Position numbers and translations under genes: made by a program. A DNA stretch of 64,000 nt from Candidatus Omnitrophota bacterium (GTDB lineage: Bacteria > Omnitrophota > Gorgyraeia > Zapsychrales > Fredricksoniimonadaceae). Under the pieces are notes generated by a model. The model saw only the letters and a list, made by a program, of their open reading frames with translations. It was not told the DNA's origin and searched no databases. Positions within the stretch are counted from its first letter, which is position 1; each line of letters opens with the position of its first letter. Location: assembly GCA_028865345.1 (NCBI GenBank), contig JAGWKL010000009.1, positions 7,382 to 71,381 of the forward strand. Reading direction: 5' to 3'. Below are positions 6,463-29,691 of the stretch, piece by piece.

Positions 6463-6477
6463 TATTTTAAGCCTCTT

Positions 6478-8376: not shown

Positions 8377-8400
8377 CCCATCTGGTGAGATAATATATCC

Positions 8401-10117: not shown

Positions 10118-10152
10118 ATCGTATATACTTACATTTAGGATGCTTGATCGAT

Positions 10153-10254: not shown

Positions 10255-10319
10255 CCTTAAATCAAGCAGTTTAAGGGATAGGTTTTTTATTTAATGGGCA
10301 TCCCTGGAGGGAGGGGCGC

Positions 10320-11123: not shown

Positions 11124-11162
11124 AATTTGCGTGGTTTGGGATATTTTGTTAATATTCCTTTT

Positions 11163-12227: not shown

Positions 12228-12258
12228 AGGGCCAATCTAAGGATATCGACAGAACAAT

Positions 12259-12564
12259 ATGACAGCCGGGATCATTTTAACAGTCTGGGGCCTTCTTCTT
12301 ATATTAGGAGGCTTTCTGGGGTTTAAAAAGGGGAGCAAGGTCTCGCTCATTGCGGGCGCCTCATGCGGCATCCTCGTCTTTCTCGGTATTTGGATATTGA
12401 GTTTCGCGCCCAAACCGGGCTGGGTATTTTTGAGTTGTTTGAATTTCTTGTTGTCTTTGAACTTTCTTTCCAGGCTCCTTAAAACCAAAAAATTCATGCC
12501 TTCCGGCATGCTTTTAATTCTCACCCTGGCTGTGTTGATTTTCTGCCTGGCCGGACTTAAGTGA
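12259..12564 (+). CDS. Small four-TM membrane protein (TMEM14-like)
   Basis: It is 101 aa and almost entirely hydrophobic, with Gly-rich helices. Confidence 0.5.
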   Translation: MTAGIILTVWGLLLILGGFLGFKKGSKVSLIAGASCGILVFLGIWILSFAPKPGWVFLSCLNFLLSLNFLSRLLKTKKFMPSGMLLILTLAVLIFCLAGLK

Positions 12565-12568
12565 ACAC

Positions 12569-12769
12569 ATGCCTAAAAAGCCGGCTGATGAACGCCCCCA
12601 ATTTTTTTTAATGTCACAAGGCTGGAACATCGCCATCGCCATCCTGGTATTGGTGCTGTTAGGCCATTGGATGGACGAAAAATTCCACACCGCGTATCTT
12701 TTTACGGCGGCAGGGGCGCTGTTGGGGGTCTTGTATTCTTTATATGAAATTTGGCGGATGTTGAAATAA
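12569..12769 (+). CDS. AtpZ/AtpI-like small membrane protein preceding the atp operon
   Basis: It is 66 aa with two TM segments, sits immediately upstream of atpB, and is followed by a weak hairpin plus T-run. Confidence 0.5.
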   Translation: MPKKPADERPQFFLMSQGWNIAIAILVLVLLGHWMDEKFHTAYLFTAAGALLGVLYSLYEIWRMLK

Positions 12770-12983
12770 TTTACGTAGTAATACTGATTGCGCAAACTCC
12801 CGAAAGGTTTAGACTAAAAAAGTATTCAAGTTCGGCAAAGCTGTCGATCCCAACAGGACAAAGATGCCCTCAGTGTTTCCGCTTTGGCGGCCAGACCCTG
12901 GGGGCCTTTTATTTAATAAAGTTTTAATGTTTTATGGCTAAAAACTTGCGCTGTTTTAACTTATCGTTTATCATATCAACATC

Positions 12984-13748
12984 ATGTTCCCCACATTTAA
13001 TTTAAGCGACTATATCATGCATCACATCGTCAATTCCCATGAGTGGCATATCCCGTTCTTTGGCGCTGTGGGGCTTGGCGGTTTTTTGACCATGCACGCC
13101 TTGATGATGTTCATCGGCACGGCCCTCGTACTGATTTTGTTCCTGGTGCTTTACCGCAAAGACGAACGCGTGCCCGCAGGCCTTACCAATTGCCTGGAGA
13201 TGTTTGTGGTTTTTATCCGCGATGAAGTCGCCATCCCGAGCCTCGGGGAAAAAGACGGTCTGTTGTTCACCCCGATGCTATGCACGCTTTTTTTCTTTAT
13301 TTTGGTCCTTAATCTCCTTGGACTTATCCCGCTTTTCGAACCTGCTACGGCCAACATCAATGTGACAGGGCCGCTGGCCTATCTTATCCTGGTTTTGATG
13401 GTTGTCGGCACTCTTGTACGCAACGGTCCCAAAGGCATATGGCATGCCATGATCCCCTCGACCTTGCCCAAGCTTCTTATCCCTTTTTTTTTGGTCACGG
13501 AGGTCGTGAGCATATTAGTGCGCACCGTCGCCCTGGCGATACGGCTTTTCGCGAACATGATAGCCGGCCACATGGTGATTTTGTCTTTTCTGGGACTGGT
13601 GGTCCTGTTCGGCTGGTGGGCCATGCTGGCCCCGGTGGTTGCCGTATTTTTTTACTGCCTGGACATTTTTGTGGCCTTTTTGCAGGCTTATATATTTATT
13701 TTGCTGTCTGCCGTATTTATCGGGCAAATGTACCATCCGGAACATTGA
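12984..13748 (+). CDS. atpB: F0F1 ATP synthase subunit a
   Basis: The sequence LAIRLFANMIAGH contains the essential Arg. Confidence 0.9.
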   Translation: MFPTFNLSDYIMHHIVNSHEWHIPFFGAVGLGGFLTMHALMMFIGTALVLILFLVLYRKDERVPAGLTNCLEMFVVFIRDEVAIPSLGEKDGLLFTPMLCTLFFFILVLNLLGLIPLFEPATANINVTGPLAYLILVLMVVGTLVRNGPKGIWHAMIPSTLPKLLIPFFLVTEVVSILVRTVALAIRLFANMIAGHMVILSFLGLVVLFGWWAMLAPVVAVFFYCLDIFVAFLQAYIFILLSAVFIGQMYHPEH

Positions 13749-13853
13749 AACGGGGTTTAAACACAGCATAAGAAAGGTCGCTTCTCTGAATAAAATTAAG
13801 GTAGCGGCACAAACCGGGAATTAAATTTATTAACCTTAAGGGAGGAAGTTTTT

Positions 13854-14084
13854 ATGAATCCACAATTATTGCATTTAGGGGAGATTTCCGCAGGGGCGGG
13901 TCTCGGGCTTTCCGCCGTCGGTGCGGGTATCGGGGTGGGACTTATCTTTGCGGCAGCCATCCAGGCCATCGCCCGCCAGCCGGAATTGACCAATAAATTG
14001 CAGACCCTGATGTTCATCGGCGCAGCCATTGTCGAAGGGGTGGCGTTTTTCTGCGCCATTATTTGTTTTTTAGCCATCAAATAA
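13854..14084 (+). CDS. atpE: ATP synthase subunit c
   Basis: It is a 76-aa hairpin proteolipid with a conserved carboxylate in AAIVEGVAFF. Confidence 0.9.
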   Translation: MNPQLLHLGEISAGAGLGLSAVGAGIGVGLIFAAAIQAIARQPELTNKLQTLMFIGAAIVEGVAFFCAIICFLAIK

Positions 14085-14093
14085 AGGTCCATT

Positions 14094-14636
14094 ATGTCCG
14101 ATACCACCGCGCATACACAAGCCCCTTCGGGCGGCCACCAGCAGACGGGGATCCTGACGCCGGATGCGACCCTGTTGACCTTGACCTGGGTGACCTTTTT
14201 TGTGCTGATGTTCATCCTGCATAAATTCGCCTGGAAACCCATACTTGCCGGCCTTAAAAAACGCGAAGATTACATCCGCAAGTCCGTTGAAGATGCGGAC
14301 AAGATCACCCGGCAGCTGGCCGAGATTGAACAAGACAAGACCAAGATACTTAACGAGGCCAAGGATAAGGCCAATGCCATCATCGAACAGTCCCGCAAGA
14401 TGAGCCATGAGATGGCCATGCATGTTGAGGCCGGCGCCAAAAAGAACGCCGAGGAGATCATCAACAGCGCCCGTCAGGAACTGGCCGGGGAGCGCGAGCG
14501 CGTCCTGGTCGCTTTGAAAAAAGAGAGCGTCCAGGCGGCCGTGTCTTTGTCTGAAAAGATCCTCAAGGAAAATCTCGATACCGAAAAGAACCGGAAATTG
14601 ATCAACGACGCCATTAAGGACATTGAACCGTCATGA
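14094..14636 (+). CDS. atpF: ATP synthase subunit b
   Basis: It has a single N-terminal TM followed by a long charged coiled coil. Its operon position supports the call. Confidence 0.8.
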   Translation: MSDTTAHTQAPSGGHQQTGILTPDATLLTLTWVTFFVLMFILHKFAWKPILAGLKKREDYIRKSVEDADKITRQLAEIEQDKTKILNEAKDKANAIIEQSRKMSHEMAMHVEAGAKKNAEEIINSARQELAGERERVLVALKKESVQAAVSLSEKILKENLDTEKNRKLINDAIKDIEPS

Positions 14637-15154
14637 GCCGGACTGCTGACCGTTATGCCAAAGCCATTTTTGAATTGGCCCGGGAACAAAACATCCTTGA
14701 AGCTGTGCAGGAATCCATGACTGAGATAAGAACGCTTATCATCACCTTGGAGGGTTTCCGGAGGTTTTTGGGCAATCCCTTGCTTTCTTACGAGGAACGC
14801 CGCGCTGTCCTGACCAGCCTCTTCGAGGGAAAAATCCCCGAGTTGGCCTTAAGGGCCCTTTTATTCATCACGTATAAGAACCGTTTGCCCATCTTGAGGG
14901 ACATCATCGAATCTTTTGACAGCTTATACCTGGCCGGCACCGGCACGATCAGGGCCTATATCAGGACGGCATTGCCCATTACGGACCAGGACAAAGCCTT
15001 GATCGACGGGCAGCTGCATGATAAATTCCGCCAACGGATGCTGACCCGCTGGTCCGTGGACGGCTCGCTCATAGGGGGCTTTAGGATTTTTATTCAAGGA
15101 GTCATTTACGATTATAGTTTTAAGAACCAGTTGAACCATTTCTTGCAACTATAG
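14633..15154 (+). CDS. atpH: ATP synthase subunit delta (OSCP)
   Basis: The N-terminus ADRYAKAIFELAREQN matches OSCP. It is placed between atpF and atpA. Confidence 0.8.
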   Translation: MSRTADRYAKAIFELAREQNILEAVQESMTEIRTLIITLEGFRRFLGNPLLSYEERRAVLTSLFEGKIPELALRALLFITYKNRLPILRDIIESFDSLYLAGTGTIRAYIRTALPITDQDKALIDGQLHDKFRQRMLTRWSVDGSLIGGFRIFIQGVIYDYSFKNQLNHFLQL

Positions 15155-15208
15155 GAACAAAGCGCAGCATAAAGTAAACCTTACAACAACCCCTAACAGA
15201 GAGTTCAT

Positions 15209-16723
15209 ATGCCTCAACAATTGAATCCCGATGAAATATCCGCCATCCTCAAACAGCAATTAAGCCATTTTACAGCCAAGGTGGAGACCTTTGAGGTGGG
15301 CACCGTGCTTAATGTCGGTGACGGCATCGCGCGTGTCTACGGCCTTTCCAATGTCATGGCCGGTGAGATCGTGCAATTTACCAACGGCATCAAGGGCCTG
15401 GCGCTTAATCTGGAAGAAAGCAATGTGGGTGTGGCCATTTTCGGATCGGACGCCGATATTAAGGAAGGCGATGAGGTCAGGCGCACGGGCAAAATTGCCT
15501 CCGTGCCTGCGGGGGACGGTCTTTTGGGCCGCATTGTGGATGCTCTGGGGGCTGCGGTTGACGGCAAACCGGCTTTCACTTCCAATGTCCTGCAGCCCAT
15601 TGAAGTCAAGGCTCCCGGCATCATCGACCGCAAGAACGTGCATGAGCCATTGCAGACCGGCATCAAGGTCATTGATGCCTTGACGCCCATCGGCCGCGGC
15701 CAGCGCGAATTGATCATCGGGGACCGTAAAACGGGCAAGACCACTCTTGCCGTCGATACCATCATCAATCAAAAGGGCAAGGGCGTGTATTGCTTTTACG
15801 TGGCCATCGGCCAGAAAAGATCGACGGTGGTCCAGGTCTTTGAGACGTTGCGCAAATTCGGGGCCATGGACTACACGACCATCGTGGCAGCCACGGCTTC
15901 CGACCCCGCACCCATGCAATTTTTAGCGCCATATGCCGGCTGCGCCATGGCAGAGTATTACCGGGACAACGGTAAACATGCGTTGATCATCTACGACGAT
16001 TTGACCAAACACGCCCAGTCCTACCGCCAGCTTTCGCTCTTGTTGCGGCGTCCGCCGGGCCGTGAAGCTTATCCCGGCGATATTTTCTATCTTCACAGCC
16101 GCCTCCTGGAGCGCGCGGCCAAATTGTCCGACAAAAAAGGGGCAGGTTCCCTGACGGCCCTGCCGGTCATCGAGACCCAGGCCGGGGACGTGTCCGCCTA
16201 TATCCCCACCAATGTCATTTCCATTACCGACGGCCAGATTTTCCTGGAAGGCGACCTTTTCAATGCCGGCCAGCGCCCGGCCATCAATGCAGGGCTTTCG
16301 GTGTCACGTGTGGGCGGTGATGCCCAGGTCAAGGCCATGAAGCAGACCGCGGGGTCCCTGCGCCTGGAACTGGCCCAGTACCGGGAGCTCGCGGCATTTT
16401 CGCAATTTGCCTCAGACTTAGACCAGGCCACCCGCAAACAGCTCGACCGCGGCAGGAGATTGATGGAGATCATCAAGCAGGGCATCCATGTGCCGTTGCC
16501 GGTCGTTAAACAAGTCGCCATCATTTTTGCCGGGACAAACGGATTTCTGGACGATGTCCCGGCCAACAGGGTGTGCGATTTTGAAGAATTCCTCTCTGCC
16601 CAAATAGACACCCAATACCATGACTTTGTGCAGTTGTTCAATAAAACCATGACCATGACCGATGAAATCAAAGCGGCATTAAAGAAATTATTGGAAGAAG
16701 TTAAATCGTCATTTAAAATATGA
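15209..16723 (+). CDS. atpA: ATP synthase subunit alpha
   Basis: It carries a Walker A motif GDRKTGKT and alpha-specific regions. Confidence 0.95.
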
Positions 16724-17604
16724 TCGGCATCAGAGAATTCAATAAAAAAATAGCCTCGCTGAAAAACACCCGCAAGATGACCAAGACGATGAAGATGGTC
16801 TCTGCCAGTAAATTCAAGCGGGCGCACAAGGCACAAGAGAGCGCGCAGGATTACGCCCAGAAACTGGGCAAATTAATGGAAAGCCTCTCCGGCGCAGGCC
16901 CCACCAACCATCCCTTGCTCAAAACCAAAAGGGCGGTCACCCGCAGTTTGATCGTTTTATTTACCTCCGACAAAGGCTTATGCGGGGGGTTCAATAATAA
17001 TTTGATCCGAAAAACCCGGCACTGGATCTCGGACAATCCCTATAAGTACACCGTTATCGGGATGAGCTTTTGCGGCCGGCGCGGCTATATGGCTTTCCGC
17101 CGCAGTGCTAAAATCAGCAAATATTATGAGAACATCACGGCCAAGCCGGAATTTGAAGGGGCCTTGAAGGTGGCGCAGGAAATTACGGATTCCTTTATCA
17201 ACAGCGAGTATGAAGAGATTTATCTGGCTTATAACCGTTTCGATGGGGCCATGACCCAGACCCCGGTGATCGAAAAGATCCTGCCATTGGATGCGTCTGT
17301 TTTCAGCAAATCCGAGGCCCCCCTGAAATCCAAAGGGCCGCGATCGATGGATTATACGTATGAACCCGAAGAAAAGGAGATCCTGTATTTTTTGATACCG
17401 AAATTCCTGAACTTTAAGATTTTTTATACGTTACTGGAAAATGCGGCCGGGGAACACGGGGCGCGCATGACCGCCATGGACAAGGCTTCCCAGAATACCG
17501 GCGAACTCATCGACCGCTATACGCTCTTGCGCAACCGCGCCAGGCAGGCGGCGATCACGAATGAATTGATCGAGATCATTTCAGGAGCGGAAGCTCTCAA
17601 ATAA
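16720..17604 (+). CDS. atpG: ATP synthase subunit gamma
   Basis: A gamma-family N-terminus and C-terminal helix ([15 protein letters not shown]) are present. Confidence 0.9.
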
Positions 17605-19035
<1,431 letters not shown>

Positions 19036-19039
19036 TATT

Positions 19040-19300
19040 ATGAGCTTTAAACTGTCCATAGTCGCGCCCAGCGGCAAAATTTTTGAGAACACGGTCGATT
19101 CTGTTGCGCTTCCCGGCGCCGAAGGCGCATTTGAAGTCTACAGCATGCACACGCCCCTCATATCGACTTTAAAAGCAGGGCGCGCCCGGGTGCGCCGCGG
19201 GGACAAAGAAACCGCTTATGAGATCACCAGCGGTATCCTCGAAGTCGACCTCGAACACAACGTGACCTTATTGGCCGATCAGGCCACACCGGTTCAATGA
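19040..19300 (+). CDS. atpC: ATP synthase subunit epsilon, short form (86 aa, beta-sandwich only)
   Basis: MSFKLSIVAPSGKIFENTVDSVALPGAEGAFEVYSMHTPLISTL matches the epsilon N-terminal domain. The ORF track extends the same frame upstream into atpD, so an internal ATG was chosen. Confidence 0.75.
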   Translation: MSFKLSIVAPSGKIFENTVDSVALPGAEGAFEVYSMHTPLISTLKAGRARVRRGDKETAYEITSGILEVDLEHNVTLLADQATPVQ

Positions 19301-19848
19301 AGAAGCTCAGCGAGAAAGTGCTTTATGAAGGCCAGTGGCTTGCCGTGCATCAAACGGTCTACCGGACCAAACACGGCCTGCAATTGACCTGGGAAACGGT
19401 CCACCGCCGCCGTTCGACCGTGGGGGTCGTGGTTGTTGCCAGGCTCATGCCTTCCGGGCGTTTTATCCTCATCAAACAGTACCGTCCGGCCATCGACGGA
19501 TACATCATTTCCTTTCCGGCAGGGCTTGGGCAAAATGATCCCAACCATGCCCTGGTGGAATTAAAAGAAGAGACCGGTTATACGGGAACGATCAAGGTTG
19601 TCAGCCCCGTGGTAAAAACCGGATCATCGATGATCAATGATAATGCCAGGATCGTTTATGTCGAAGTCGACGAGTATGCGCCGGCCAACCAAAACCCCGT
19701 GCAAACCCTGGAGGATGCCGAAGACATCGAAGTCTGCCTGGTGGCCAAAGATGACGCCGAAAACTTCCTGCTCAAGCAGATAGAACAGGGTATAAGCGTG
19801 TCGGCCAATTTGTGGTACGTTTTTGGTATGGGACAATGGATAGTTTAG
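19297..19848 (+). CDS. NUDIX hydrolase (ADP-ribose pyrophosphatase-like)
   Basis: A Nudix-box-like segment PAGLGQNDPNHALVELKEETGY is present. The ATGA overlaps the atpC stop. Confidence 0.75.
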   Translation: MKKLSEKVLYEGQWLAVHQTVYRTKHGLQLTWETVHRRRSTVGVVVVARLMPSGRFILIKQYRPAIDGYIISFPAGLGQNDPNHALVELKEETGYTGTIKVVSPVVKTGSSMINDNARIVYVEVDEYAPANQNPVQTLEDAEDIEVCLVAKDDAENFLLKQIEQGISVSANLWYVFGMGQWIV

Positions 19849-19863: not shown

Positions 19864-20562
19864 ATGAAAACAATATTGGTATTTATTTTCAGCCTCTGCC
19901 TTGCCACCTGTGCTTTTGCCGATGGCTCCATTACGGGTACGGTCAAATATGAAGGGATGGTTCCCCCTAAAAGATTTATCCCCATGGAGGCCGACCCGGT
20001 CTGTTACGCGATCCATAAGGGCAATATTTATTTGCCGTCGCTTCTATTAGGGAAGGGCAACACCCTGGGCAATACGTTCGTGTTCATCAAAAGCGGCCTT
20101 AAGCAAAGCGTTTATCCGCCTCCGGCAAGGCCCGCGGTCATCAGTCAGGCGGGATGCGACTATCATCCCCATGTCATCGGGGTCATGGCAGGGCAGAAGG
20201 TCGAGTTCCTCAATCCTGACGGGACCCTGCACAATGTGCATGCCATGTGCAGGATCAATCCGCAATTCAACGCTTCCATGCCGCCTTTCCGCAAGGAAAT
20301 GGAAGTGACGTTTAAAAAACCGGAATTCATGTTCCCCGTTCAGTGCGACGTGCATCCATGGATGCGGGCATGGATGGCGGTGATGCCGGACCCGTTCTTT
20401 GCCGTGACGGGACAGGACGGCAAATTTGTGATCAAAAACGTGCCCGACGGCACCTACGTCGTTGAGGCCTGGCATGAAAGGCTGGGCACAAAAACAGCGA
20501 CAGTAAAGGTGGGGGGCAACTCCTCGCAAAAGATAGATTTTACTTTTTCCGAGACCAATTAG
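19864..20562 (+). CDS. Secreted protein with carboxypeptidase-regulatory-like beta-sandwich signatures and a putative Cu site (His...C-x2-H-x2-M)
   Basis: It has a signal peptide. GTVKYEG and DGKFVIKNVPDGTYVVEAWHE are typical of CarboxypepD_reg. HNVHAM...QCDVHPWMRAWM gives a Cys/His/Met ligand set. It lies directly upstream of the oxidase operon. Confidence 0.5.
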   Translation: MKTILVFIFSLCLATCAFADGSITGTVKYEGMVPPKRFIPMEADPVCYAIHKGNIYLPSLLLGKGNTLGNTFVFIKSGLKQSVYPPPARPAVISQAGCDYHPHVIGVMAGQKVEFLNPDGTLHNVHAMCRINPQFNASMPPFRKEMEVTFKKPEFMFPVQCDVHPWMRAWMAVMPDPFFAVTGQDGKFVIKNVPDGTYVVEAWHERLGTKTATVKVGGNSSQKIDFTFSETN

Positions 20563-20591: not shown

Positions 20592-20768
20592 ATGGGAATT
20601 AAGAATATTCACGTGCTTCTTATTGTTATTTCCATCCTGTTGTCCGTTGGTTTCGGATTTTGGGCGGTTTTCCATAACTATGCCGTATGGGGATATCTTT
20701 CGTTCATCATTGCAGCCGTTTTGATTGTTTACTGTGTTCAATTTATTAAAAAAATGAAAACTTTATGA
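20592..20768 (+). CDS. Unlisted small ORF, 58-aa two-TM membrane peptide
   Basis: The ATG follows a TAGGGGG RBS-like stretch. The product is MGIKNIHVLLIVISILLSVGFGFWAV... It sits upstream of coxA. Confidence 0.35.
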   Translation: MGIKNIHVLLIVISILLSVGFGFWAVFHNYAVWGYLSFIIAAVLIVYCVQFIKKMKTL

Positions 20769-20831: not shown

Positions 20832-21002
20832 ATGATTTTTTGCGCAGTCTGCTTCGGGGATCCCACCTCGCCCCTCACTCACGGATACAATTACGCGGTG
20901 ATCACGTTATTGCTTGTTGTCACCGCTGTCTTATCGGCATTCGGCATGATGTTTTTGAATTTCCGTAAAAGAGAAAGAAATTTCATCCATAAAATAAAAT
21001 AG
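20832..21002 (+). CDS. Unlisted small ORF, 56-aa peptide with N-terminal CxxC followed by one TM
   Basis: It encodes MIFCAVCFGDPTSPL...VITLLLVVTAVLSAFGMMFL. It lies between the preceding small ORF and coxA. Confidence 0.35.
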   Translation: MIFCAVCFGDPTSPLTHGYNYAVITLLLVVTAVLSAFGMMFLNFRKRERNFIHKIK

Positions 21003-21086
21003 AAATTAAATTTACCTTTCAAAGATTTATGGTATAGTTTAGGTTCTTAAGTTAAGGTCAAAAGGTCATTTTGGAGAACAAGCGAT

Positions 21087-22832
21087 ATGGGCGGTTCCCC
21101 CAATAGCGCTTCACATCACGAATCTTTTATCCGCAAGTATATTTTTTCCACAGACCATAAGGTCATTGCCATTCAATACCTGTTTTTAAGCCTGTTTTTT
21201 CTCCTTTTTGGCTTTTTGCTGATGCTTTTGATGCGCTGGCAATTGGCCTATCCCGGGCAACCCGTACCTTTTAATTTTATAGGAAAGCTGTTCGGCCAAA
21301 ACAGTATGCCCGGCGGTGTCATGCTCCCTGAATTTTATAACCAGTTGGGGGCCATGCACGGGACGATCATGGTGTTTTTGGGGGTTGTCCCGCTGGGCTT
21401 CGCTGTTTTTGGAAATTATTTGATCCCTTTGCAGATCGGCGCCAGGGACATGGCCTTTCCACGGTTGAACATGTTCAGCTACTGGTCGTTTTTTGCAGGC
21501 GGCATGTTGATGCTCTCAAGCTTTTTTTGGCCGGGCGGCCCGGCCAGCAACGGCTGGACATCTTATGCCCCCTTGTCCGACATTGCGCATGACGGGCAGA
21601 CCATCTGGCTTTTCAGCATGTTTATCATCATCGTGTCCTCGCTGCTTTCTTCCTTAAATTTTATTGTGACTATCTTTAACCTCCGGGCCCCGGGCATGAC
21701 CTTCGAACGCCTGCCGTTCTTTATCTGGGCCCAACTGGTCACCTCCTTTTTACTGCTGTTAGCTTTCCCGCCGCTGGAAGGGGCCGCGTTTTTGCAATTG
21801 TGCGACCGCCTGCTGGGGACAAGCTTTTTTCTGCCCAGCGGCCTGTTTGTCAACGGCCAGGTCTACAATGTCAGCGGGGGAGGCAATGCGCTGCTTTGGC
21901 AGCATTTGTTCTGGTTTCTGGGCCATCCCGAGGTTTATGTCCTTATCCTGCCGGCCTTAGGCATCGTCACGGAAATCATCGCCAACAACACCAGAAAAAA
22001 TATCAGCGGCTTTAACATGATGCGCGTTTCCGTCATCTTTTTGGGCTTTTTGTCATTTGTCGTCTGGTCGCATCACATGTACTTGACCGGCATGGGCACC
22101 GATATCACAGCCTTTTTCCAATTGACCACCATGATCATCTCGATCCCATCCATCATCATCGTTTCTGCTTTGTTCATCACCTTGTGGGGGGGATCCATCC
22201 GTTTTACCACTCCGATGATCTTTGCCCTTGCCTTTTTACCCATGTTCGGTATCGGCGGGTTGACCGGTTTGCCCCTGGGCCTGGCCGCCACCGACATCCC
22301 TTTGCATGACACCTACTATGTCATCGGGCACTTTCATTATGTCGTGGCCCCGGGCGTTATTTTAGGGCTTTTTGCCGGGATTTATTATTGGTTCCCCAAG
22401 GCCACGGGCCGAAAAATGAATGACCTCCTTGGCCATCTGCATTTTTGGCCTACCTTGATCACCATGAATTTCGTTTTTTTCCCCATGCTCATTCAAGGCC
22501 TGATGGGGGTCAACCGCAGGTTGTACGACGGGGGGGAGACTTATTTATTCATGCATAAAGTGCTTTATTGGAATGTGGTCATCTCCTGGGCGGCCTGGGT
22601 CCTGGCCCTGGCCCAGCTTCCGTTTATCTTCAACTTTTTTTACAGCATGTTCAAAGGCGAAAAAGTCCATTCGGACAATCCCTGGGAGTCCACCACGCTG
22701 GAATGGGCCACACCCACACCGCCTCCGCACGGAAATTTCACCAAACAGCTGACCGTGTATCGCGATCCCTACAGCTACAGCCTGGAGGGAGCGCCTAAAG
22801 ATTACAGCCCACAATATCAGGAGGAGATTTAA
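21087..22832 (+). CDS. coxA: Heme-copper cytochrome c oxidase subunit I
   Basis: It is a 581-aa 12+ TM protein with His ligands in HHMYLTG and GHFHYV. Confidence 0.9.
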   Translation: MGGSPNSASHHESFIRKYIFSTDHKVIAIQYLFLSLFFLLFGFLLMLLMRWQLAYPGQPVPFNFIGKLFGQNSMPGGVMLPEFYNQLGAMHGTIMVFLGVVPLGFAVFGNYLIPLQIGARDMAFPRLNMFSYWSFFAGGMLMLSSFFWPGGPASNGWTSYAPLSDIAHDGQTIWLFSMFIIIVSSLLSSLNFIVTIFNLRAPGMTFERLPFFIWAQLVTSFLLLLAFPPLEGAAFLQLCDRLLGTSFFLPSGLFVNGQVYNVSGGGNALLWQHLFWFLGHPEVYVLILPALGIVTEIIANNTRKNISGFNMMRVSVIFLGFLSFVVWSHHMYLTGMGTDITAFFQLTTMIISIPSIIIVSALFITLWGGSIRFTTPMIFALAFLPMFGIGGLTGLPLGLAATDIPLHDTYYVIGHFHYVVAPGVILGLFAGIYYWFPKATGRKMNDLLGHLHFWPTLITMNFVFFPMLIQGLMGVNRRLYDGGETYLFMHKVLYWNVVISWAAWVLALAQLPFIFNFFYSMFKGEKVHSDNPWESTTLEWATPTPPPHGNFTKQLTVYRDPYSYSLEGAPKDYSPQYQEEI

Positions 22833-22833
22833 T

Positions 22834-23445
22834 TTGGAAGCCGCACATACCGAAGAATTTATCCCTTACATCGTTGAACCCCGCGAAGACACCGGCCTTT
22901 ATAACGCAAAATTCGGCATCTGGCTTTTTTTGGCCTCAGAAGTGATGCTCTTCGGGTCTTTGTTTTCAGCTTACATCCTGCTGCGCGCAGGGTCTTTCAA
23001 CTGGCCGGTGCAGTCCGACGTCCAGAACGTGCCTATCGGCGCCATCAACAGCATTGTCCTTTTGTCATCCAGCATATTTTTTATACGCGCCTGGGTCCAC
23101 TTGAAAGCTGATAATATCGCCAAATATAAACAATTCATGCGTTTGGTGCTTTTGTTTGCTTTTATATTCCTGACGCTTAAAGGTTTTGAGTATTACCAGC
23201 ATTTCAGCCATCATGAATACCCCAAAACAAATGTTTTTTTCGGCCTTTATTATTTAATGACAGGCCTTCATGCCTTGCATATTATCGGCGGAATTATTGT
23301 CAACAGCTTTTATCTTGGGCCCGGCATGCGCCTTAGGTCCACCAACAAACAATGGTTCATCAACCGCCTGGAAGTCGCCGGCCTTTATTGGCATTTTGTG
23401 GACTTAGTCTGGATATTTTTGTTCTCGACCCTGTACCTGCTCTAA
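22834..23445 (+). CDS. coxC: Cytochrome c oxidase subunit III
   Basis: It is a 5-7 TM protein with a conserved C-terminal YWHFVDLVWIFLF. Confidence 0.85.
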   Translation: MEAAHTEEFIPYIVEPREDTGLYNAKFGIWLFLASEVMLFGSLFSAYILLRAGSFNWPVQSDVQNVPIGAINSIVLLSSSIFFIRAWVHLKADNIAKYKQFMRLVLLFAFIFLTLKGFEYYQHFSHHEYPKTNVFFGLYYLMTGLHALHIIGGIIVNSFYLGPGMRLRSTNKQWFINRLEVAGLYWHFVDLVWIFLFSTLYLL

Positions 23446-23449
23446 ATCT

Positions 23450-23761
23450 ATGGAAGACCATTCGAATTCCGCAGACCTTAAAAGAGATATCCTGATCTAT
23501 GGCGCCATCGTTGTCCTGACGGTCCTGATTGTGCTTATCAGCCGTTTTCATCTGGGCGTATTGGGAATTTTTATCATTGTGCCCATCGCCTGCACGGAAG
23601 CCGGGGTCCTGGCTTATTTTTTCATGCACCTTAGCGCCAAACAAAAAACTCTTCATATGCTTTTGTTGTTGACCATTGTCGTCTTTTTGTCGTTATTATT
23701 TTGGCCCGTGTGGGACATTCTTTATTCACCGAGAACGCCCAGCGCCTATACCACGAATTGA
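23450..23761 (+). CDS. coxD: Cytochrome c oxidase subunit IV (bacterial small subunit)
   Basis: It is a 103-aa 3-TM protein placed after subunit III. Confidence 0.6.
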   Translation: MEDHSNSADLKRDILIYGAIVVLTVLIVLISRFHLGVLGIFIIVPIACTEAGVLAYFFMHLSAKQKTLHMLLLLTIVVFLSLLFWPVWDILYSPRTPSAYTTN

Positions 23762-23763
23762 TT

Positions 23764-24513
23764 ATGGACAGCCTTTTACAAAAACTCCTTCCCATGCAGC
23801 CTTTAGCGTCGGTGGAAGGCCGTGCCAATGATACCCTGATGTATCTCATTCATGGGCTTATTCTTGTCCTTTTTGTGGGTTGGGCCGTTTATTTTATTAC
23901 GGTCCTGATCAAATTCCGCCAGAGAAAAGGCGTTAAGGCCCGTGAAGTCCCTGTCGCGCATAAAATTTCAACGTCCGTTGAATGGACCGTGGCCTTTCTT
24001 GAACTTTTGCTTCTCTTTGCCTTCTCCATCCCTTTTTGGGCTGTGCACCAGGCGTCGATCCCTAAAGGCAAGAACATCCTGACGATCAAAGTGGTGGCCC
24101 AGCAATTCGCCTGGAACATCCATTATGCCGGCCCTGACGGGAGATTCGGCCATACCTCTGCCCGTTTCCTTAATGATAACCCCCTGGGGCTTGATCCCAG
24201 CGATCCTGACGGTAAAGACGACATCACCACCATGAACGAGATCTATCTGCCGGTCAATAAGCCTGTCATTTTCGACCTGACCAGCAAGGACGTCATCCAC
24301 AGTTTTGGCATACCTGCGATGCGTGTCAAACAAGATGTCATTCCCGGCATGGTCACCCATGTCTGGTTTACCCCGGATAAGATAGGCCAATATGAAGTGG
24401 CGTGTTCCCAGTTGTGCGGCCCGGGGCATTACCGCATGAGGGGCATTATCCATGTTGTGAGCCAGGCCGATTTTGACCAATGGATACAGCAAAACAAAGG
24501 AATCCATGACTGA
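23764..24513 (+). CDS. coxB: Cytochrome c oxidase subunit II (CuA) with no fused cytochrome c domain
   Basis: It has two N-terminal TMs and the CuA site H...CSQLCGPGHYRM. The start was taken at the ATG right after the coxD stop. Confidence 0.85.
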   Translation: MDSLLQKLLPMQPLASVEGRANDTLMYLIHGLILVLFVGWAVYFITVLIKFRQRKGVKAREVPVAHKISTSVEWTVAFLELLLLFAFSIPFWAVHQASIPKGKNILTIKVVAQQFAWNIHYAGPDGRFGHTSARFLNDNPLGLDPSDPDGKDDITTMNEIYLPVNKPVIFDLTSKDVIHSFGIPAMRVKQDVIPGMVTHVWFTPDKIGQYEVACSQLCGPGHYRMRGIIHVVSQADFDQWIQQNKGIHD

Positions 24514-25045
24514 TCATCATCCAACCCCAAGACCGGAAGAACCTGAGGATATCCAAAAGCGTAATTTTATAAAAACCCTGACTGTCGCGATTTTGGGATT
24601 TATAACGTTTTTCTTAACGCAGCCTTTTGTCACCTACCTGTTTCCGGTGGCTAAGGAGGGGACGAAGGAAAAATTTATCAAGGTCCCTAATTTCCCGGCC
24701 ATACCTCTCGAAACGCCTACAAAAATGACCTTCGAATACATGGATGTGCAGGCCTACATCACCAGCAATGTTATTTATGACGTTTGGGTGGTCAAGCATG
24801 CCGCTGATAAAGCCTCCGTCTATAACCCCCTGTGCACGCATTTAAATTGCCGTTACACCTGGGTGGGAAGCCACCATGAATTTATGTGCCCCTGTCACGG
24901 AAGCATATTTAACATCAACGGCAAGGTCGTTGGGGGCCCCGCCCCCAGGCCTTTGGACACCCTTCCTTATAAAATTGAAGGGGGGGAGCTTTATGTCCAT
25001 TGGGAATTGTTTAAAGCCGGCATCCCGCAGAAACTTGAGATTTAA
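24506..25045 (+). CDS. Rieske 2Fe-2S protein of a bc-type complex
   Basis: Rieske box I is CTHLNC and box II is CPCHGS. The ATG overlaps the coxB stop as ATGACTGA. Confidence 0.85.
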   Translation: MTDHHPTPRPEEPEDIQKRNFIKTLTVAILGFITFFLTQPFVTYLFPVAKEGTKEKFIKVPNFPAIPLETPTKMTFEYMDVQAYITSNVIYDVWVVKHAADKASVYNPLCTHLNCRYTWVGSHHEFMCPCHGSIFNINGKVVGGPAPRPLDTLPYKIEGGELYVHWELFKAGIPQKLEI

Positions 25046-25076
25046 TGCGTCAAGGCGAACAAAGTAAAGGGCCGTC

Positions 25077-27374
25077 ATGAGTAAGAAAAAATGGCTGCAT
25101 CAGATCAAAGACTGGGTCGATGAACGCACCGGATTGATAAAGGCCGGCGCTGAATTCCTTCATGAAGAAATCCCCGGCGGCACCAGGTTTTCATACACCT
25201 TAGGCAGCGCCTGTTTATTTCTTTTGACCCTCCAGATCGTCACCGGCATCTGGCAGCTTTTTTATTATGTTCCGACCATTGATTATGCGTACTCCAGCTT
25301 AAATTACCTGCGCCTGCAGGTCCCATATGGGTGGCTCATCCACGGCATCCATTATTGGGGAGGGACTTTATTTACCATCGTCGTGGGATTGCACTGCCTG
25401 CGGGTTTTCATCTGGGGGTCCTATAAAAAGCCCCGGGAAATGGTGTGGCTGATGGGCATCGTGCTCATTATCCTGACGGCCCTGTTCATGTTCACCGGTC
25501 CGGTATTGCCCTGGGACAAAAACGGTTACTGGGCGGGGCAGGTGGGCATCGGCATCGCCGGCACCGTCCCTATCGTCGGTCCGCTGACGCAGATGCTGAT
25601 GCAGGGCGCCGACAAGATGGGGCAAATGGCCTTATTGCGCATGTATGTCATGCATGTGGCGCTTTTGCCCGGCGCCATTGCCCTTTTTGTGATTTTGCAT
25701 TTGGTGGCTTTCCGGAAATACGGTGAATCCGGGCCATGGGATAAAAAGAAGCGCGGAGGAGTCGGATATTTCTGGCCGGAACAGATATTCAAGGATGTGC
25801 TGGTTTCATTGTTGATATTCCTTTTGCTTGTTTACCTTTCCGCCTTTCATCCGGCGCCTTTTTCCGGTCTGGCCGACCCCATGGATACGCTTGTCACCCC
25901 TAAACCGGCCTGGAATTTTCTTTTCCTCTATCAATTGCTTAAATTGAAAATATTTTCAGGTCCTTTTGAACCATTGGGCACTGCCGGCATTCCCACGCTC
26001 TTTATCCTGCTTTTTGCTTCACTGCCTTTTGTGGACAAGAGTCCTGAACGCAATCCTTTTAAACGCGGCTTTGTCGTATTAAGCGGGTTTGCTTTTGTGG
26101 GCATGATCTTATATTTAACCTGGCTTGGTTATAGCTACACGTCTCCTGCCGTGGCAGCTCAAAAGGAACAGCCTAACCGCACCATGGTGACCCTTCACCA
26201 TAAAACGCAACCCCCCATGGACCTTCAAGAAACCATGCTCCTTGCCAATGCCAATAAAAAATTGACAGGAAAGAAGTTATTCCATACCTTGGGATGTACG
26301 GAATGCCATACCATAACCGGCAAGCCCAGCAATAAGCAAGGCCCGGACCTTATCATGGCAAAATCCAACAATCGTACCCGTGCCTGGTTATATGAACAGA
26401 TCGTTTCCCCTCAATCGCACAATCCCCGTACGATCATGCCGCCGTTTTCGGATTTAAGCCATAAAAATGTCGAGCTTTTGATTAATTTCCTGGACGGGCT
26501 GAAAGCCCCCAAGACGGCGGCGTTGCCGCCTCCGCCGCCGGCGTCGACAGCCGGAGGGACTGCGGCCGGCAAAGCAGCTGCCATTAAATACGGCGAACAA
26601 CTTTTCAATACAGTGGGCTGTACTCAATGCCATACGATCCAGGGCCGGCCAAGCAACAAGGTAGGGCCGGATTTGATCATAGCCGTCAAAAAGAGCAATC
26701 CTTCCAAAGATTGGCTCAAGACCCAGTTGACAGATCCCCAAGCGCATAATCCCATGAGCATCATGCCTTCATTTTCCAGCCGCTTGAATGACACGCAGAT
26801 GAATGCCGTGATTGTTTTCTTAAAAAGTTTGTCGACAAGAAAAGCAGTGCCATTGCCCGCCGGAGTGACGGAGACATCTTCCAGTAATACGAGTTCATCT
26901 TCGTCTTTCAGCAGCAATGCCGTTTATGCCACCAATATCATCGGTGACAAAGATCACGGAGCCATTCTCTTTCACCAGTCTTGTATCATGTGCCATGGGC
27001 CCCACGGAAACCCCAAAACCCCGGGATTTAACGCCCCCAAAGGCGTCCCGCCCCTTAATCCGATCGACCCCCATATTTTTAACGCCGATCCGCAGGCTTT
27101 TGTCGATCATATAAATACATTTATTCAGCACGGCGCCCCCAATATCGAGGGCGGCCCCAAAATGCCCAACTTCGGCGATTCTAATGCTTTGACCCAGGCC
27201 CAGATAGCGGACCTGGAAGCCTATGTCCTTTCCCTTAACGGAGTTGACCGCACCATGATCATGAACCCCGGGATTCAGCCCAAAGTATTTTTTTATACCT
27301 TACTTTGGATCACCTCTGTTATAATCATGTTAGCTGCAGTGTATTGGTTCGTGATCAGAACGCTTAAAATATAA
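25077..27374 (+). CDS. Cytochrome b fused to a C-terminal tri-heme c-type cytochrome
   Basis: The N-terminal 400 aa is a cyt b with His pairs in IHGIHYWG/GLHCLR and MHVALLP/ILHLVAF. The C-terminus carries three CxxCH motifs (CTECH, CTQCH, CIMCH) after a Pro-rich linker. Confidence 0.85.
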   Translation: MSKKKWLHQIKDWVDERTGLIKAGAEFLHEEIPGGTRFSYTLGSACLFLLTLQIVTGIWQLFYYVPTIDYAYSSLNYLRLQVPYGWLIHGIHYWGGTLFTIVVGLHCLRVFIWGSYKKPREMVWLMGIVLIILTALFMFTGPVLPWDKNGYWAGQVGIGIAGTVPIVGPLTQMLMQGADKMGQMALLRMYVMHVALLPGAIALFVILHLVAFRKYGESGPWDKKKRGGVGYFWPEQIFKDVLVSLLIFLLLVYLSAFHPAPFSGLADPMDTLVTPKPAWNFLFLYQLLKLKIFSGPFEPLGTAGIPTLFILLFASLPFVDKSPERNPFKRGFVVLSGFAFVGMILYLTWLGYSYTSPAVAAQKEQPNRTMVTLHHKTQPPMDLQETMLLANANKKLTGKKLFHTLGCTECHTITGKPSNKQGPDLIMAKSNNRTRAWLYEQIVSPQSHNPRTIMPPFSDLSHKNVELLINFLDGLKAPKTAALPPPPPASTAGGTAAGKAAAIKYGEQLFNTVGCTQCHTIQGRPSNKVGPDLIIAVKKSNPSKDWLKTQLTDPQAHNPMSIMPSFSSRLNDTQMNAVIVFLKSLSTRKAVPLPAGVTETSSSNTSSSSSFSSNAVYATNIIGDKDHGAILFHQSCIMCHGPHGNPKTPGFNAPKGVPPLNPIDPHIFNADPQAFVDHINTFIQHGAPNIEGGPKMPNFGDSNALTQAQIADLEAYVLSLNGVDRTMIMNPGIQPKVFFYTLLWITSVIIMLAAVYWFVIRTLKI

Positions 27375-27375
27375 T

Positions 27376-28401
27376 TTGCCCCTTCAACTTATGCAGACTG
27401 AAACCTTTGCCCTCCGACGTTTTTCAAAATTCCTTTGTCTTTTGACCCTGGGCCTGATTTTCTTAGGCGCCCTGGTCAAAAGCACCGATTCAGGACTTTC
27501 CGTGCCTGATTGGCCGACCACTTACGGCAAATTCATATACGCTTATCCTCTTAACAAAATGTACGGGGGGATCAAGTTTGAGCAAACCCACCGGCTGCTG
27601 GCATCCTTGGTGGGGATGCTGACCCTGCTTTTGACCATATGGCTTCTTCGTGTCAGGGACATGCCCCTTTGGGTCAGACGTTGGGGCATATTCGCATTTG
27701 TCGCAGTTGTACTTCAAGGTGTTTTAGGGGGACTGGGCGTCATATATTTCCTGCCGGTTTGGCTGACATCCTTACACGGAGTCCTGGCCCAGACATTTCT
27801 TCTGATTCTGATCTTTATCGCCTACGCGTTGTCCGCGGAACGCCATCAGCGTGGCAAGACCCAGGAAGAAGGCCATGACGGGACTTTCCTGAAGCCGGCC
27901 CTCTTTTTGATGGCGATGATCTACATCCAATTGATCATCGGCAATGTCGTGCGTCATTCCGGCTCCGGGCTGGCGGTGCCGGATTTCCCGACGATGGGAT
28001 GGAAGCTGATCCCAACTTTTGATGCCGCCTGGCTTCACAGGATCAACGCCTGGCGCTTCGAGCACAATATGGACCCCGTTACCATGGCCCAGGTATGCAT
28101 CCATCTTCTTCACCGCTTCTGGGCTTTTTTGATCGTCATTAGCCTTCTGTGGACCAATAAGATCGCTTATGACCGGTGCCTGAAGAATGCCGTTATCATG
28201 AAGACCCTGTATTGGCTTAATATTGCGATTATACTGCAAGTGGTTTTGGGGGCCTCCACGGTGCTGTCCCATGAAGAAGTTTATACAACGACCCTGCATG
28301 TGACCACAGGGGCGATCGTATTGACCTTGTCTTTCATCATGGTGCTGCGTTCAGCGCCCATAAAGTGGAAACAATTCAAATCATTGGTTTTTGCAAAATG
28401 A
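27376..28401 (+). CDS. ctaA: Heme A synthase (COX15/CtaA)
   Basis: It is an 8-TM protein with the COX15-like N-terminus STDSGLSVPDWPTTYG and conserved His residues. Confidence 0.85.
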   Translation: MPLQLMQTETFALRRFSKFLCLLTLGLIFLGALVKSTDSGLSVPDWPTTYGKFIYAYPLNKMYGGIKFEQTHRLLASLVGMLTLLLTIWLLRVRDMPLWVRRWGIFAFVAVVLQGVLGGLGVIYFLPVWLTSLHGVLAQTFLLILIFIAYALSAERHQRGKTQEEGHDGTFLKPALFLMAMIYIQLIIGNVVRHSGSGLAVPDFPTMGWKLIPTFDAAWLHRINAWRFEHNMDPVTMAQVCIHLLHRFWAFLIVISLLWTNKIAYDRCLKNAVIMKTLYWLNIAIILQVVLGASTVLSHEEVYTTTLHVTTGAIVLTLSFIMVLRSAPIKWKQFKSLVFAK

Positions 28402-29270
28402 AGAATAAATTCAAACTCTATAAGGCCTATTGGAGCATGACCAAGCCCGGCATCATGATGATGGTGCTGGTGACAACCGCCCTGGGGTTCTATTTTGCCG
28501 GCCGCGGCATTCAAGATTCCGTATTGCTTCTTTGGACATTGCTTGGTTCAGGATTGACGTGCGGGGGGGCATCCGTGCTCAATCAATACCTTGAGAGAGA
28601 TGTTGACGCGATCATGCGGCGCACCCAAAACAGGCCCATTCCGACGGGAATCATTGCGCCGGAAGATGCCTTGACCTTCGGTCTTGCCCTTATCTTAAGC
28701 GGCCTGTTCGTGTTCTGCTGGAAGGTCAATTTATTGACGGCGTTCTTGAGCCTGCTGACTTGTTTTTTATATGTTTTAGTCTACACGCCGATGAAAAAAC
28801 TGACCTGGCTGAACACCAGTTTCGGCGCCATTCCGGGAGCCATCCCGCCTTTGGGAGGCTGGGCCGCGGCGACCGATCATTTGGCCCCGGGCGGATGGAT
28901 CCTGTTTTTGATCATGTTCACCTGGCAGCACCCGCATTTTTATTCCATCGCCTGGTTGCTGAAAGATGATTATAAAAAAGCCGGATTTAAAATGCTGCCT
29001 GTCGTCCATCCGGACGCCAAATACACCCTTGTACAGATCACGGCCTTCAGTTTCCTTTTGACCGCCTTTTCGCTGATGCCGTCTTTGGCCGGCATGTCCG
29101 GCAAAATATATTTCTGGGGCGCCCTTGGCCTGGGGATAGGTGTTTTATACACCGCTTTTTTGTTCCAGCACAACCAATCCGACGCCAATGCGCGCAAGAT
29201 CCTGGGCGCATCCATTATGTATCTTCCTCTTTTATTGGTCCTGATCATCGTTGACGGGGCTTTAAGCTGA
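28398..29270 (+). CDS. ctaB: Protoheme IX farnesyltransferase (heme O synthase)
   Basis: It is a UbiA-family protein with YWSMTKPGIMMMV and NQYLERDVDAIMRRTQNRP. The ATGA overlaps the ctaA stop. Confidence 0.9.
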   Translation: MKNKFKLYKAYWSMTKPGIMMMVLVTTALGFYFAGRGIQDSVLLLWTLLGSGLTCGGASVLNQYLERDVDAIMRRTQNRPIPTGIIAPEDALTFGLALILSGLFVFCWKVNLLTAFLSLLTCFLYVLVYTPMKKLTWLNTSFGAIPGAIPPLGGWAAATDHLAPGGWILFLIMFTWQHPHFYSIAWLLKDDYKKAGFKMLPVVHPDAKYTLVQITAFSFLLTAFSLMPSLAGMSGKIYFWGALGLGIGVLYTAFLFQHNQSDANARKILGASIMYLPLLLVLIIVDGALS

Positions 29271-29271
29271 T

Positions 29272-29691
29272 ATGCATCCGCCTATCCTGCCGACCATCAA
29301 TGCCGGTTTGAACGCTTCTGCGGGAGTCCTTTTGACCTTGGGAGGGATTGCCATCAAGAACAAAGACCGCGTCAGACACAAAAAATTCATGATTTCAGCT
29401 TTTGCCTGTTCGGCTTTGTTCTTATGCACCTACCTGTATTACCACTTCACATCAGGGATCACGTATTATCACGGCAAGGGGATCTTAAGGACGATTTATT
29501 TTATCGTTTTGGGCACGCATACGCCCCTGGCGGTATTGATTGTGCCCTTTATCATCATGGCCATCCGCCATGCCTTAAGAGGGGAGTTTGATAAACACAC
29601 GCGCATTACCCGTTGGCTTTATCCGGCCTGGATTTATGTGTCGGTGACAGGCGTGGTAGTTTACTTCATGCTTTTCGTTCTTCCTGCCTGA
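29272..29691 (+). CDS. DUF420-family membrane protein commonly linked to aa3/caa3 oxidase clusters
   Basis: It is a 139-aa 4-TM protein at the end of the operon. Confidence 0.6.
   Translation: MHPPILPTINAGLNASAGVLLTLGGIAIKNKDRVRHKKFMISAFACSALFLCTYLYYHFTSGITYYHGKGILRTIYFIVLGTHTPLAVLIVPFIIMAIRHALRGEFDKHTRITRWLYPAWIYVSVTGVVVYFMLFVLPA

Follow-up and report, generated by a model that had tools for sequence, protein, structure and literature searches.

A conserved Omnitrophota gene cluster joins a Rieske/cytochrome b::tri-haem c module to an aa3 oxidase and may encode a wired quinol-to-oxygen chain

How do electrons reach an aa3 oxidase whose genes enclose those of a bc complex, and whose most obvious electron donor is fused to cytochrome b? 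This question is raised by a locus from a Candidatus Omnitrophota bacterium (GCA_028865345.1, contig JAGWKL010000009.1, positions 7,382 to 71,381 of the forward strand). This whole stretch of 64,000 nucleotides (nt) was analysed and is called the window. At 21087-29691 of the window, an A-family aa3 operon, which includes the genes for haem A, encloses a b6-like Rieske/cytochrome b pair after coxB and before ctaA. Instead of having a subunit of its own as c-type acceptor, the bc complex carries three class-I haem c modules, which follow transmembrane (TM) helix 7 of cytochrome b and are themselves followed by a TM anchor. The original prediction, made from the sequence alone, had read this arrangement as an obligate bc–aa3 supercomplex. 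With a probability of about 0.6, we regard the cluster as a conserved Omnitrophota system for a complete quinol-to-oxygen chain, in which the fused tri-haem arm would wire the bc complex to CuA, either in a supercomplex or as a tethered shuttle.

The genes were identified by Pfam and NCBIfam scans of the open reading frames (ORFs) of the window. The co-directional run contains the following genes:

21087-22832, + strand: coxA, haem-copper oxidase subunit I of the A family (GHPEVY; Pfam COX1, E = 1.8e-133), first gene of the run
22834-23445, + strand: coxC, subunit III (Pfam COX3), start codon TTG at 22834
23450-23761, + strand: coxD, subunit IV (COX4_pro and TIGR02229)
23764-24513, + strand: coxB, subunit II, 249 amino acids (aa) (COX2; TIGR02866 with 155 bits against a cut-off of 147.7)
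24506-25045, + strand: Rieske [2Fe-2S] subunit (Pfam Rieske above cut-off; boxes CTHLNC…CPCHGS)
25077-27374, + strand: cytochrome b::c3 fusion, 765 aa (N- and C-terminal parts of Cytochrome_B, then three Cytochrom_C stretches, E = 3.7e-30)
27391-28401, + strand: ctaA, haem A synthase (Pfam COX15-CtaA), start as in the NCBI gene call
28398-29270, + strand: ctaB, haem O synthase of the UbiA family (Pfam and NCBIfam scans)
29272-29691, + strand: DUF420 membrane protein (Pfam DUF420, E = 7e-40), last gene of the run

These profile searches bear out the predicted order coxA-coxC-coxD-coxB-Rieske-cytb::tri-haem c-ctaA-ctaB-DUF420. The NCBI gene call places the start of coxC later, at 22945; in alignments with relatives, the similarity to the long form begins at about residue 1-10. 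The product of the DUF420 gene is taken by us to be a CtaM-like accessory factor of aa3 oxidases. From coxA to DUF420, the gaps at the junctions are 1, 4, 2, −8, 31, 16, −4 and 1 nt. Two ATGA overlaps had been predicted. The one between ctaA and ctaB is found, provided that, in agreement with NCBI, ATG 28398 is taken as the start of ctaB, and the one between coxB and the Rieske gene is in fact an overlap of 8 nt (ATGACTGA). The latter overlap is conserved and suggests translational coupling of both complexes. The tight packing of the genes is consistent with co-transcription, and a single transcript may reasonably be inferred. The gene located 3' of DUF420 is convergent and encodes a DUF6787 protein on the minus strand. 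An Rfam scan detected no RNA element inside the cluster. One promoter-like site was located upstream of coxA, at 21011-21038, and is to be taken as a lead only.

The central element of the cluster is the fusion protein, and the window stems from a metagenome-assembled genome (MAG). In such an assembly, a frameshift might have merged the genes of cytochrome b and of a separate cytochrome c, as the original prediction had itself objected, or a chimeric contig might have joined two operons. The window is, however, identical to a contig of the 'Candidatus Omnitrophica' MAG GCA_028866185.1, the population is also present in the samples of runs SRR32006840 and SRR32006849, and the identical 765-aa protein and locus are found in three independent assemblies, namely one NCBI MAG and two Logan assemblies. 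A search of 5.8 billion proteins yielded about 60 full-length homologues of about 760 aa that have the same domain set and are 44-77% identical. In addition, the gene order is repeated in 7 other species-level genomes. On these grounds an artefact of sequencing or assembly is ruled out for all practical purposes, and the objection fails. The fusion of cytochrome b with a tri-haem cytochrome c is real and conserved.

The fusion protein is composed of five parts:

25077-26171, + strand: cytochrome b domain, aa 1-365, unsplit, with 7 TM helices (AlphaFold2 (AF2) model and invariant His residues)
26259-26510, + strand: cD1, first class-I cytochrome c module, with CTECH at 26295-26309 and the distal Met in IMPPF; predicted local distance difference test (pLDDT) of the AF2 model about 80-96
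26583-26846, + strand: cD2, a copy of cD1, with CTQCH at 26619-26633, a Pro/Ala-rich linker before it and a Ser-rich linker after it
26934-27251, + strand: cD3, terminal class-I cytochrome c module, with CIMCH at 26982-26996 and the Met in KMPNFGD
27279-27362, + strand: C-terminal TM anchor, aa 735-762 (AF2 helix); a hydrophobic C-terminus is kept across the family

The protein contains three CxxCH motifs (CTECH at aa 407, CTQCH at aa 515, CIMCH at aa 636). Two of them lie in duplicated mono-haem modules, as had been claimed; cD1 and cD2 are 51% identical (E = 7e-30). For the assessment of invariance, 70 homologues of the fusion protein were aligned. The cD3 residues C636, C639, H640 and M696 are invariant, as are the haem-b ligands H92, H106, H193 and H208, which show the b6-type spacing with 14 residues between the histidines of helix D. 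The cytochrome b part is b6-like, and its best matches in the PDB and in NCBIfam are cytochrome b6. For the Rieske protein, the best NCBIfam match is b6f PetC, below the cut-off. The b6f and Firmicute-type enzymes have a split b6 plus subunit IV, whereas the cytochrome b of the window is unsplit. The Cys of the CxGG motif that binds haem ci is not present; the position reads Y-T-L-G-S, with a Thr for the Cys. The motif of the quinol oxidation site Qo (codons 277-280) is PAWN in the window protein and in its nearest relatives, and not PEWY or PDWY. Further out in the family PEWN, PVWN or PAWP is found. The P and the W of the motif are invariant, and the clade of the window no longer has an acidic residue at the second position.

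An AF2 model based on the homologue alignment has a mean pLDDT of 83 and a predicted template modelling score of 0.71. The TM helices comprise residues 39-61, 85-114, 121-140, 183-215, 235-257, 295-319 and 327-353, and the final helix comprises residues 735-762. Since seven helices precede it, the C-terminal extension should emerge on the periplasmic side, where c-type cytochromes must lie. The model contains three well-folded c domains between segments of low confidence (366-380 and 597-614, weaker near 480-495), and the linkers between the c modules are rich in Pro/Ala or Ser. A Foldseek comparison of the model with the PDB recovered the cytochrome b part alone and is silent on the arrangement of the c domains. 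The module cD3 is present in all family members examined. Together with the anchor it is constant across the family, and the cD1-like module occurs in 1 to about 4 copies. An invariant cD3 combined with a varying number of cD1-like copies fits a fixed acceptor plus variable tethered carriers. In a few homologues, P0081 and P0110 among them, the C-terminal anchor is followed by a fused Rieske domain, such that the whole catalytic core of the bc complex is a single polypeptide.

From this architecture, the following electron path can be proposed. Quinol would be oxidized at Qo, and the Rieske cluster would hand electrons to the membrane-anchored cD3, which would play the role of c1, of cytochrome f or of QcrC-D2. 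From cD3, the electrons would pass to cD2 and cD1, the duplicated modules on flexible Pro/Ala/Ser-rich linkers. Either cD1 or cD2 would dock on the CuA site of the co-encoded subunit II, and from CuA the electrons would reach haem a and finally the haem a3/CuB centre. Because the c modules are tethered at both ends, the oxidase would have to sit within reach of the linkers, which implies a complex III–IV supercomplex or at least a tethered-shuttle arrangement. On this analysis, an obligate supercomplex, as originally predicted, is a reasonable proposal. Furthermore, the fusion protein is the only credible c-type cytochrome among the ORFs of the 64-kb window.

Several findings weigh against this wiring. 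Operon status is deduced from gene spacing alone. A consensus promoter scan gave fewer promoter-like sites than are found in shuffled sequence and is uninformative for the operon structure; the terminator-like hairpins that the same scan located on the + strand of the coxA–DUF420 run all lie within genes. The supercomplex is proposed by analogy, with a structure prediction that covers single chains, and which c modules face the Rieske protein and CuA is judged by conservation and anchor position and not by geometry. In sequence, the c modules resemble QcrC marginally at best. The screen for cytochromes covered 64 kb of the genome, and soluble cytochromes c may exist elsewhere. Most of the homologous Rieske-cytb::c(n) pairs in other phyla have no oxidase nearby; the fused c modules are thus not specific to aa3 oxidases. 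Finally, electrons could reach CuA by way of p232 instead, a conserved secreted cupredoxin that is encoded directly 5' of the cluster and was overlooked in the original prediction. This lowers the confidence in an obligate direct wire. Between the p232 gene and coxA lie two small genes:

19864-20562, + strand: p232, amicyanin-like type-1 copper protein that is secreted and ends in an Ig-like (CarboxypepD_reg) domain (profile of 9 orthologues)
20592-20768, + strand: sm58, conserved small protein, predicted to have two hydrophobic membrane spans (no Pfam or NCBIfam match)
20832-21002, + strand: sm56, conserved small protein in which a C-x-V-C-[FY]-G motif at the N-terminus precedes one hydrophobic span (orthologue alignment; no family match)

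The cupredoxin part of p232 has no direct cupredoxin match in Pfam. A comparison of the 9-orthologue profile with the PDB detected amicyanin over the whole cupredoxin fold (E = 6e-5), plus other type-1 copper domains. A signal peptide is present, and the ligands H123, C161, H164 and M167, a His-Cys-His-Met type-1 copper set, are invariant. In at least 8 related loci, which cover both configurations of the cluster described below, the gene lies close to the oxidase genes on their 5' side. These properties make p232 a candidate accessory electron carrier. They would also suit a different scheme, in which the two complexes are co-regulated and physically independent, and a diffusible periplasmic carrier links the fused c modules to CuA. 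The best candidate for this carrier would be p232; a soluble cytochrome c from elsewhere in the genome is a second possibility. The rus operon of Acidithiobacillus and the SoxM operon of Sulfolobus both combine an oxidase with a blue copper protein. A further case is the haloarchaeal cluster of halocyanin and Rieske/cytb genes (PMC3509893). However, the three tethered haem c modules already suffice as a bridge, and the two small genes, with gaps of 29-84 nt, part p232 from coxA. For a simple shuttle, the C-terminal Ig-like domain would be odd, and p232 could equally feed electrons from another donor or serve in copper handling. A diffusible link is hence conceivable but rather unlikely, and we prefer the tethered tri-haem arm as the connection to CuA.

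In residue-level alignments, the best PDB match of oxidase subunits I and II is the aa3 oxidase of Paracoccus (and Rhodobacter). CoxA contains all six His ligands/metal ligands, the cross-linked Tyr of HPEVY, and the Asp and Glu of the D-pathway. The motifs that align with Paracoccus aa3 are GHPEVY, HHMY and HDTYYVIGHFHYV, and the Asp is found in ARDMAFPRLN. CoxB appears to consist of two N-terminal hydrophobic spans and a CuA cupredoxin domain with the motif H…CSQLCGPGHYRM. The run of CuA ligands reads H…C-S-Q-L-C-G-P-G-H-Y-R-M, and QQFAW retains the Trp through which electrons enter (Paracoccus W121). CoxB lacks a cytochrome c domain: no CxxCH is present, and the CuA Met is followed by 18 residues. 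The statement of the original prediction that subunit II has CuA and lacks a cytochrome c is correct, but this is not a special feature: it is the ordinary state of aa3 oxidases, and the best PDB match is subunit II of Paracoccus aa3. The presence of both CuA and the electron-entry Trp identifies the enzyme as a cytochrome c (or cupredoxin) oxidase and rules out a quinol oxidase. A caa3-type oxidase is likewise ruled out, because subunit II has no C-terminal cytochrome c domain. Haem A cofactors are likely, given that ctaA and ctaB belong to the same cluster.

One residue of the oxidase deviates from expectation. The Lys of the K-pathway has been described as conserved in the A family (PMC8361435). 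In a gap-free alignment, this Lys (Paracoccus K354 in helix VIII) corresponds to an Ile in the CoxA of the window (SIPSIIIVSALF), and helix VIII (around codons 340-370) contains no Lys at all. The position is occupied by I, V, L or M in all members with a readable motif among the 120 nearest homologues (at least 69% identity) and in all related loci. Other CoxA groups without this Lys exist among representatives of 50%-identity clusters, some of them with a Gln at the K position. The A2-type oxidases encoded near other Rieske/cytb::cc genes retain the Lys. Helix VIII has gained several Ser, Thr and Gln (hydroxyl/amide) residues in the clade of the window. In Paracoccus numbering, T330, T334, Q341, T343, S348 and S351 are polar residues specific to this clade. 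A compensation of the lost Lys by H292E is ruled out, as this Glu is also found in A2-type oxidases in which the Lys is retained. In the literature, nothing specific on A-family oxidases without the K-pathway Lys was found. The missing residue thus raises a testable question on proton delivery in A-family oxidases. It is tempting to combine it with the wiring proposed above into a self-contained quinol oxidase supercomplex, in which the tri-haem arm leads directly to CuA and a K-Lys-free A-family oxidase uses a hydroxyl-lined helix VIII as B-type oxidases do. This combined reading is tentative, and we consider it doubtful as a whole. If true, these aa3 oxidases would form a subfamily of their own, widespread in the environment, whose evolution was coupled to that of dedicated bc modules in the same operon.

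How far the arrangement extends beyond the window was determined by a comparison of gene order, as the original prediction had proposed. One genome per GTDB species was scanned, and 80 loci were annotated with the window proteins. The order sm58-sm56-coxA-C-D-B-Rieske-cytb::c3-ctaA-ctaB-DUF420 was found in 7 further species-level genomes (loci L004-L009 and L066), whose cytochrome b is 60-77% identical. Exceptions are L006, where DUF420 lies upstream, and L066, where ctaA and DUF420 were not detected. These genomes are labelled partly as Omnitrophota and partly as 'uncultured Planctomycetales'. A minimal cassette coxA-coxB-Rieske-cytb::c3 with 50% identity was found in L087, and in this case, too, coxB and the Rieske gene overlap. 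The subunit order I-III-IV-II is standard across the whole CoxA clade, and it also occurs beside Rieske/cytb::cc genes in MAGs of Bacteroidota, Kryptoniota and Thermodesulfovibrionales. The order had been called unusual, which does not hold. The arrangement as such is kept, but linkage of bc and aa3 genes is typical of the lineage, ancestral to it, and not special to the window.

This became evident from three sister lineages (L084-L086), whose CoxA is about 70% identical. Here, a bc module of a different type is located upstream of coxA. It comprises a Rieske protein, a split b6, a subunit-IV-like protein of 300-371 aa and a cytochrome c of 860-980 aa with 7-8 CxxCH motifs. The coordinates in the respective loci are:

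L084, 3694-9135: sister bc module
L085, 4047-9164: sister bc module
L086, 2660-7928: sister bc module

Solely in L084 and L086, the ATP synthase and then a HEAT-repeat protein are encoded 5' of this module. The module is followed by p232, coxA-C-D, two small genes, coxB, ctaA, ctaB, SCO1 (in L084 and L086) and DUF420. With respect to the small genes between coxD and coxB, one was called in L085 and the second was detected by tblastn; in L086, neither of them matches sm58 or sm56. The flanks of L084 and L086 are as in the window, with the ATP synthase upstream and genes for DUF6787, a ferredoxin, a radical SAM (S-adenosylmethionine) enzyme and aconitase downstream. The positions of sm58 and sm56 shift together: the genes lie 5' of coxA in the clade of the window and between coxD and coxB in L084 and L085. 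Their products are probably extra oxidase subunits or assembly factors.

Judging by these gene orders, the bc–aa3 linkage and the I-III-IV-II order of the subunits are lineage traits. What distinguishes the clade of the window is which bc module is used and where it is placed. The two modules are 30-40% identical, compared to about 50-56% between the module of the window and the stand-alone cytb::cc of other phyla; for Rieske-cytb::cc of Nitrospirota, Bacteroidota and Ignavibacteria MAGs, the identity to the window fusion is 40-56%. The simplest reading would be that the upstream split-b6/multihaem module was replaced by a cytb::c(n) module, which was inserted after coxB. In the window, an ORF of 183 aa with weak similarity to NUDIX proteins (19297-19848) is located between the gene for ATP synthase epsilon and p232. 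In L084 and L086, its position holds the HEAT–Rieske–b6–multihaem module, and it may mark the site where that module was lost.

Stand-alone Rieske-cytb::c(n) pairs were found in MAGs of Nitrospirota, Bacteroidota, Ignavibacteria, Kryptoniota, Desulfobacterota-like lineages, Planctomycetota and Zetaproteobacteria. In three of these loci, an A2-type oxidase cluster with the order I-III-II-ctaB lies a few kb away. Among the close relatives of the module that have no oxidase nearby are some from MAGs with typically anaerobic labels (Thermodesulfovibrionales and Deferrimicrobiaceae). One may ask for this reason whether Rieske/cytb::c3 mainly serves another purpose, such as the reduction of a different terminal acceptor or a reverse flow from a periplasmic donor to quinones, and shares no more than its regulation with the cox genes. 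The Qo motif without the usual acidic residue, PAWN instead of PEWY, would be in line with such a function. Against it stand the overlap of coxB and the Rieske gene, which is conserved even in the four-gene cassette of L087, and the absence of genes for an alternative reductase from the cluster and its flanks. Moreover, the neighbouring genes for ATP synthase, haem biosynthesis and the tricarboxylic acid (TCA) cycle fit aerobic respiration. A separate function of the bc module is accordingly quite improbable, and electron delivery to the co-encoded oxidase is the reading retained here.

The wider surroundings of the cluster read as an aerobic-respiration neighbourhood. Upstream on the same strand (region 1046-19300), genes of haem biosynthesis were found, namely HemC/CobA/HemD, HemB, HemL, a PPO-like oxidase and HemA. 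HemC/CobA/HemD is a three-domain fusion at 2233-4263. With 60.3 bits, a c-di-GMP-I riboswitch (GGC variant) at 10147-10229 on the + strand is above the gathering score of 59. Shortly 3' of it, a response regulator is encoded (10320-11123), and hemA (11127-12227) comes next. A full F1Fo ATP synthase operon occupies 12984-19300. Downstream of the cluster, methionine sulfoxide reductases, aconitase and citrate synthase are encoded.

Two genome surveys of Omnitrophota score aerobic capacity by markers of cytochrome c oxidase, and the main text of neither mentions Rieske, bc1 or complex III. The cluster shows that aerobic Omnitrophota carry a compact and complete quinol-to-oxygen chain beside genes for ATP synthase, haem biosynthesis and the TCA cycle. 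It furthermore represents a natural experiment in the wiring of complex III to complex IV, as one clade of oxidases is combined either with a split b6 and a 7–8-haem cytochrome c encoded upstream or with an unsplit cytochrome b::tri-haem c encoded inside the operon. The tethered c modules, which vary in copy number, would make a good system for relating the length of a carrier arm to supercomplex formation.

How does this system compare to known linkages of complexes III and IV? The closest analogue is the bcc–aa3 system of Actinobacteria (QcrCAB and CtaCDEF of Mycobacterium and Corynebacterium). Both have a multi-haem class-I c component with a C-terminal TM anchor, Rieske and cytochrome b subunits, and an A-family aa3 oxidase with a subunit II lacking cytochrome c. 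In Actinobacteria, ctaE adjoins qcrCAB, which amounts to a partial genetic linkage. The actinobacterial supercomplex has been characterized structurally; its dihaem cytochrome cc wires the FeS protein directly to CuA, and no soluble cytochrome c is needed (PMC8361435). This cytochrome cc and the membrane-anchored cytochrome cy are precedents for tethered carriers (PMC8361435). In the window, however, the c part is fused to cytochrome b and does not form a separate QcrC, and it contains three haems instead of two. The cytochrome b of the window, with 7 TM helices, resembles b6, the oxidase operon encloses the bc genes, and an association of the two complexes is a proposal. The original prediction had proposed an alignment of the c domain with QcrC. 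This comparison gave 25 bits against a cut-off of 200 for NF050122 and E values of 1e-3 to 0.3 for matches to QcrC in the PDB. The c modules are thus unrelated to QcrC at the family level, and membership in the actinobacterial or Bacillus QcrC family was rejected, as the defining features are lacking.

With respect to domain composition, the fusion resembles a published, horizontally scattered clade in which cytochrome b carries a C-terminal class I cytochrome c, as described in passages of Kao & Hunte 2014 (PMC4122944). According to these passages, some members have an Ala at position 2 of the Qo motif (PAWY). The window protein shares with the clade, as far as those passages define it, the full-length cytochrome b and the C-terminal class I c. 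It differs in having three c modules and a terminal TM helix. In addition, its Qo motif ends in N (PAWN/PEWN) and not in Y, and an Asn at position 4 does not occur in the accessible part of Table 1 of that paper. The passages on the cyt b::c clade contain no mention of a linkage to an oxidase operon (PMC4122944).

The Bacillus/Geobacillus enzymes b6c (QcrABC) and caa3 are a further point of reference, and Bacillus PS3 has yielded a bc–oxidase supercomplex. Cytochrome b of Bacillus is split and carries the Cys for haem ci, whereas the protein of the window has a Thr at this position. Bacillus fuses one c haem only, its subunit II carries a cytochrome c domain (caa3), and its two operons are separate. 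A Rieske/cytb–oxidase supercomplex of the SoxM type is also known from Sulfolobus. There, the genes for Rieske protein, cytochrome b, an oxidase subunit and a blue copper protein (sulfocyanin) form one operon. The Sulfolobus system differs from that of the window in that it is archaeal, has no c-type haems, uses the blue copper protein as the link, and has differently organized oxidase subunits.

In Melainabacteria and Sericytochromatia, 'fused' operons of complexes III and IV have been described, in which genes for a Rieske protein and a b6-type cytochrome b adjoin those of a haem-copper oxidase; they were read as a combined III/IV unit (PMC6349859; 10.1101/531145). In contrast to the window, the oxidase of the Melainabacteria described belongs to the C family (cbb3-type), no tri-haem fusion of cytochrome b was described, and the phylum is a different one. 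Literature searches yielded no description of the present gene arrangement. Taken together, the arrangement is real, conserved and coherent. It is a new version of the known complex III–IV linkages, and its logic is already familiar from them.

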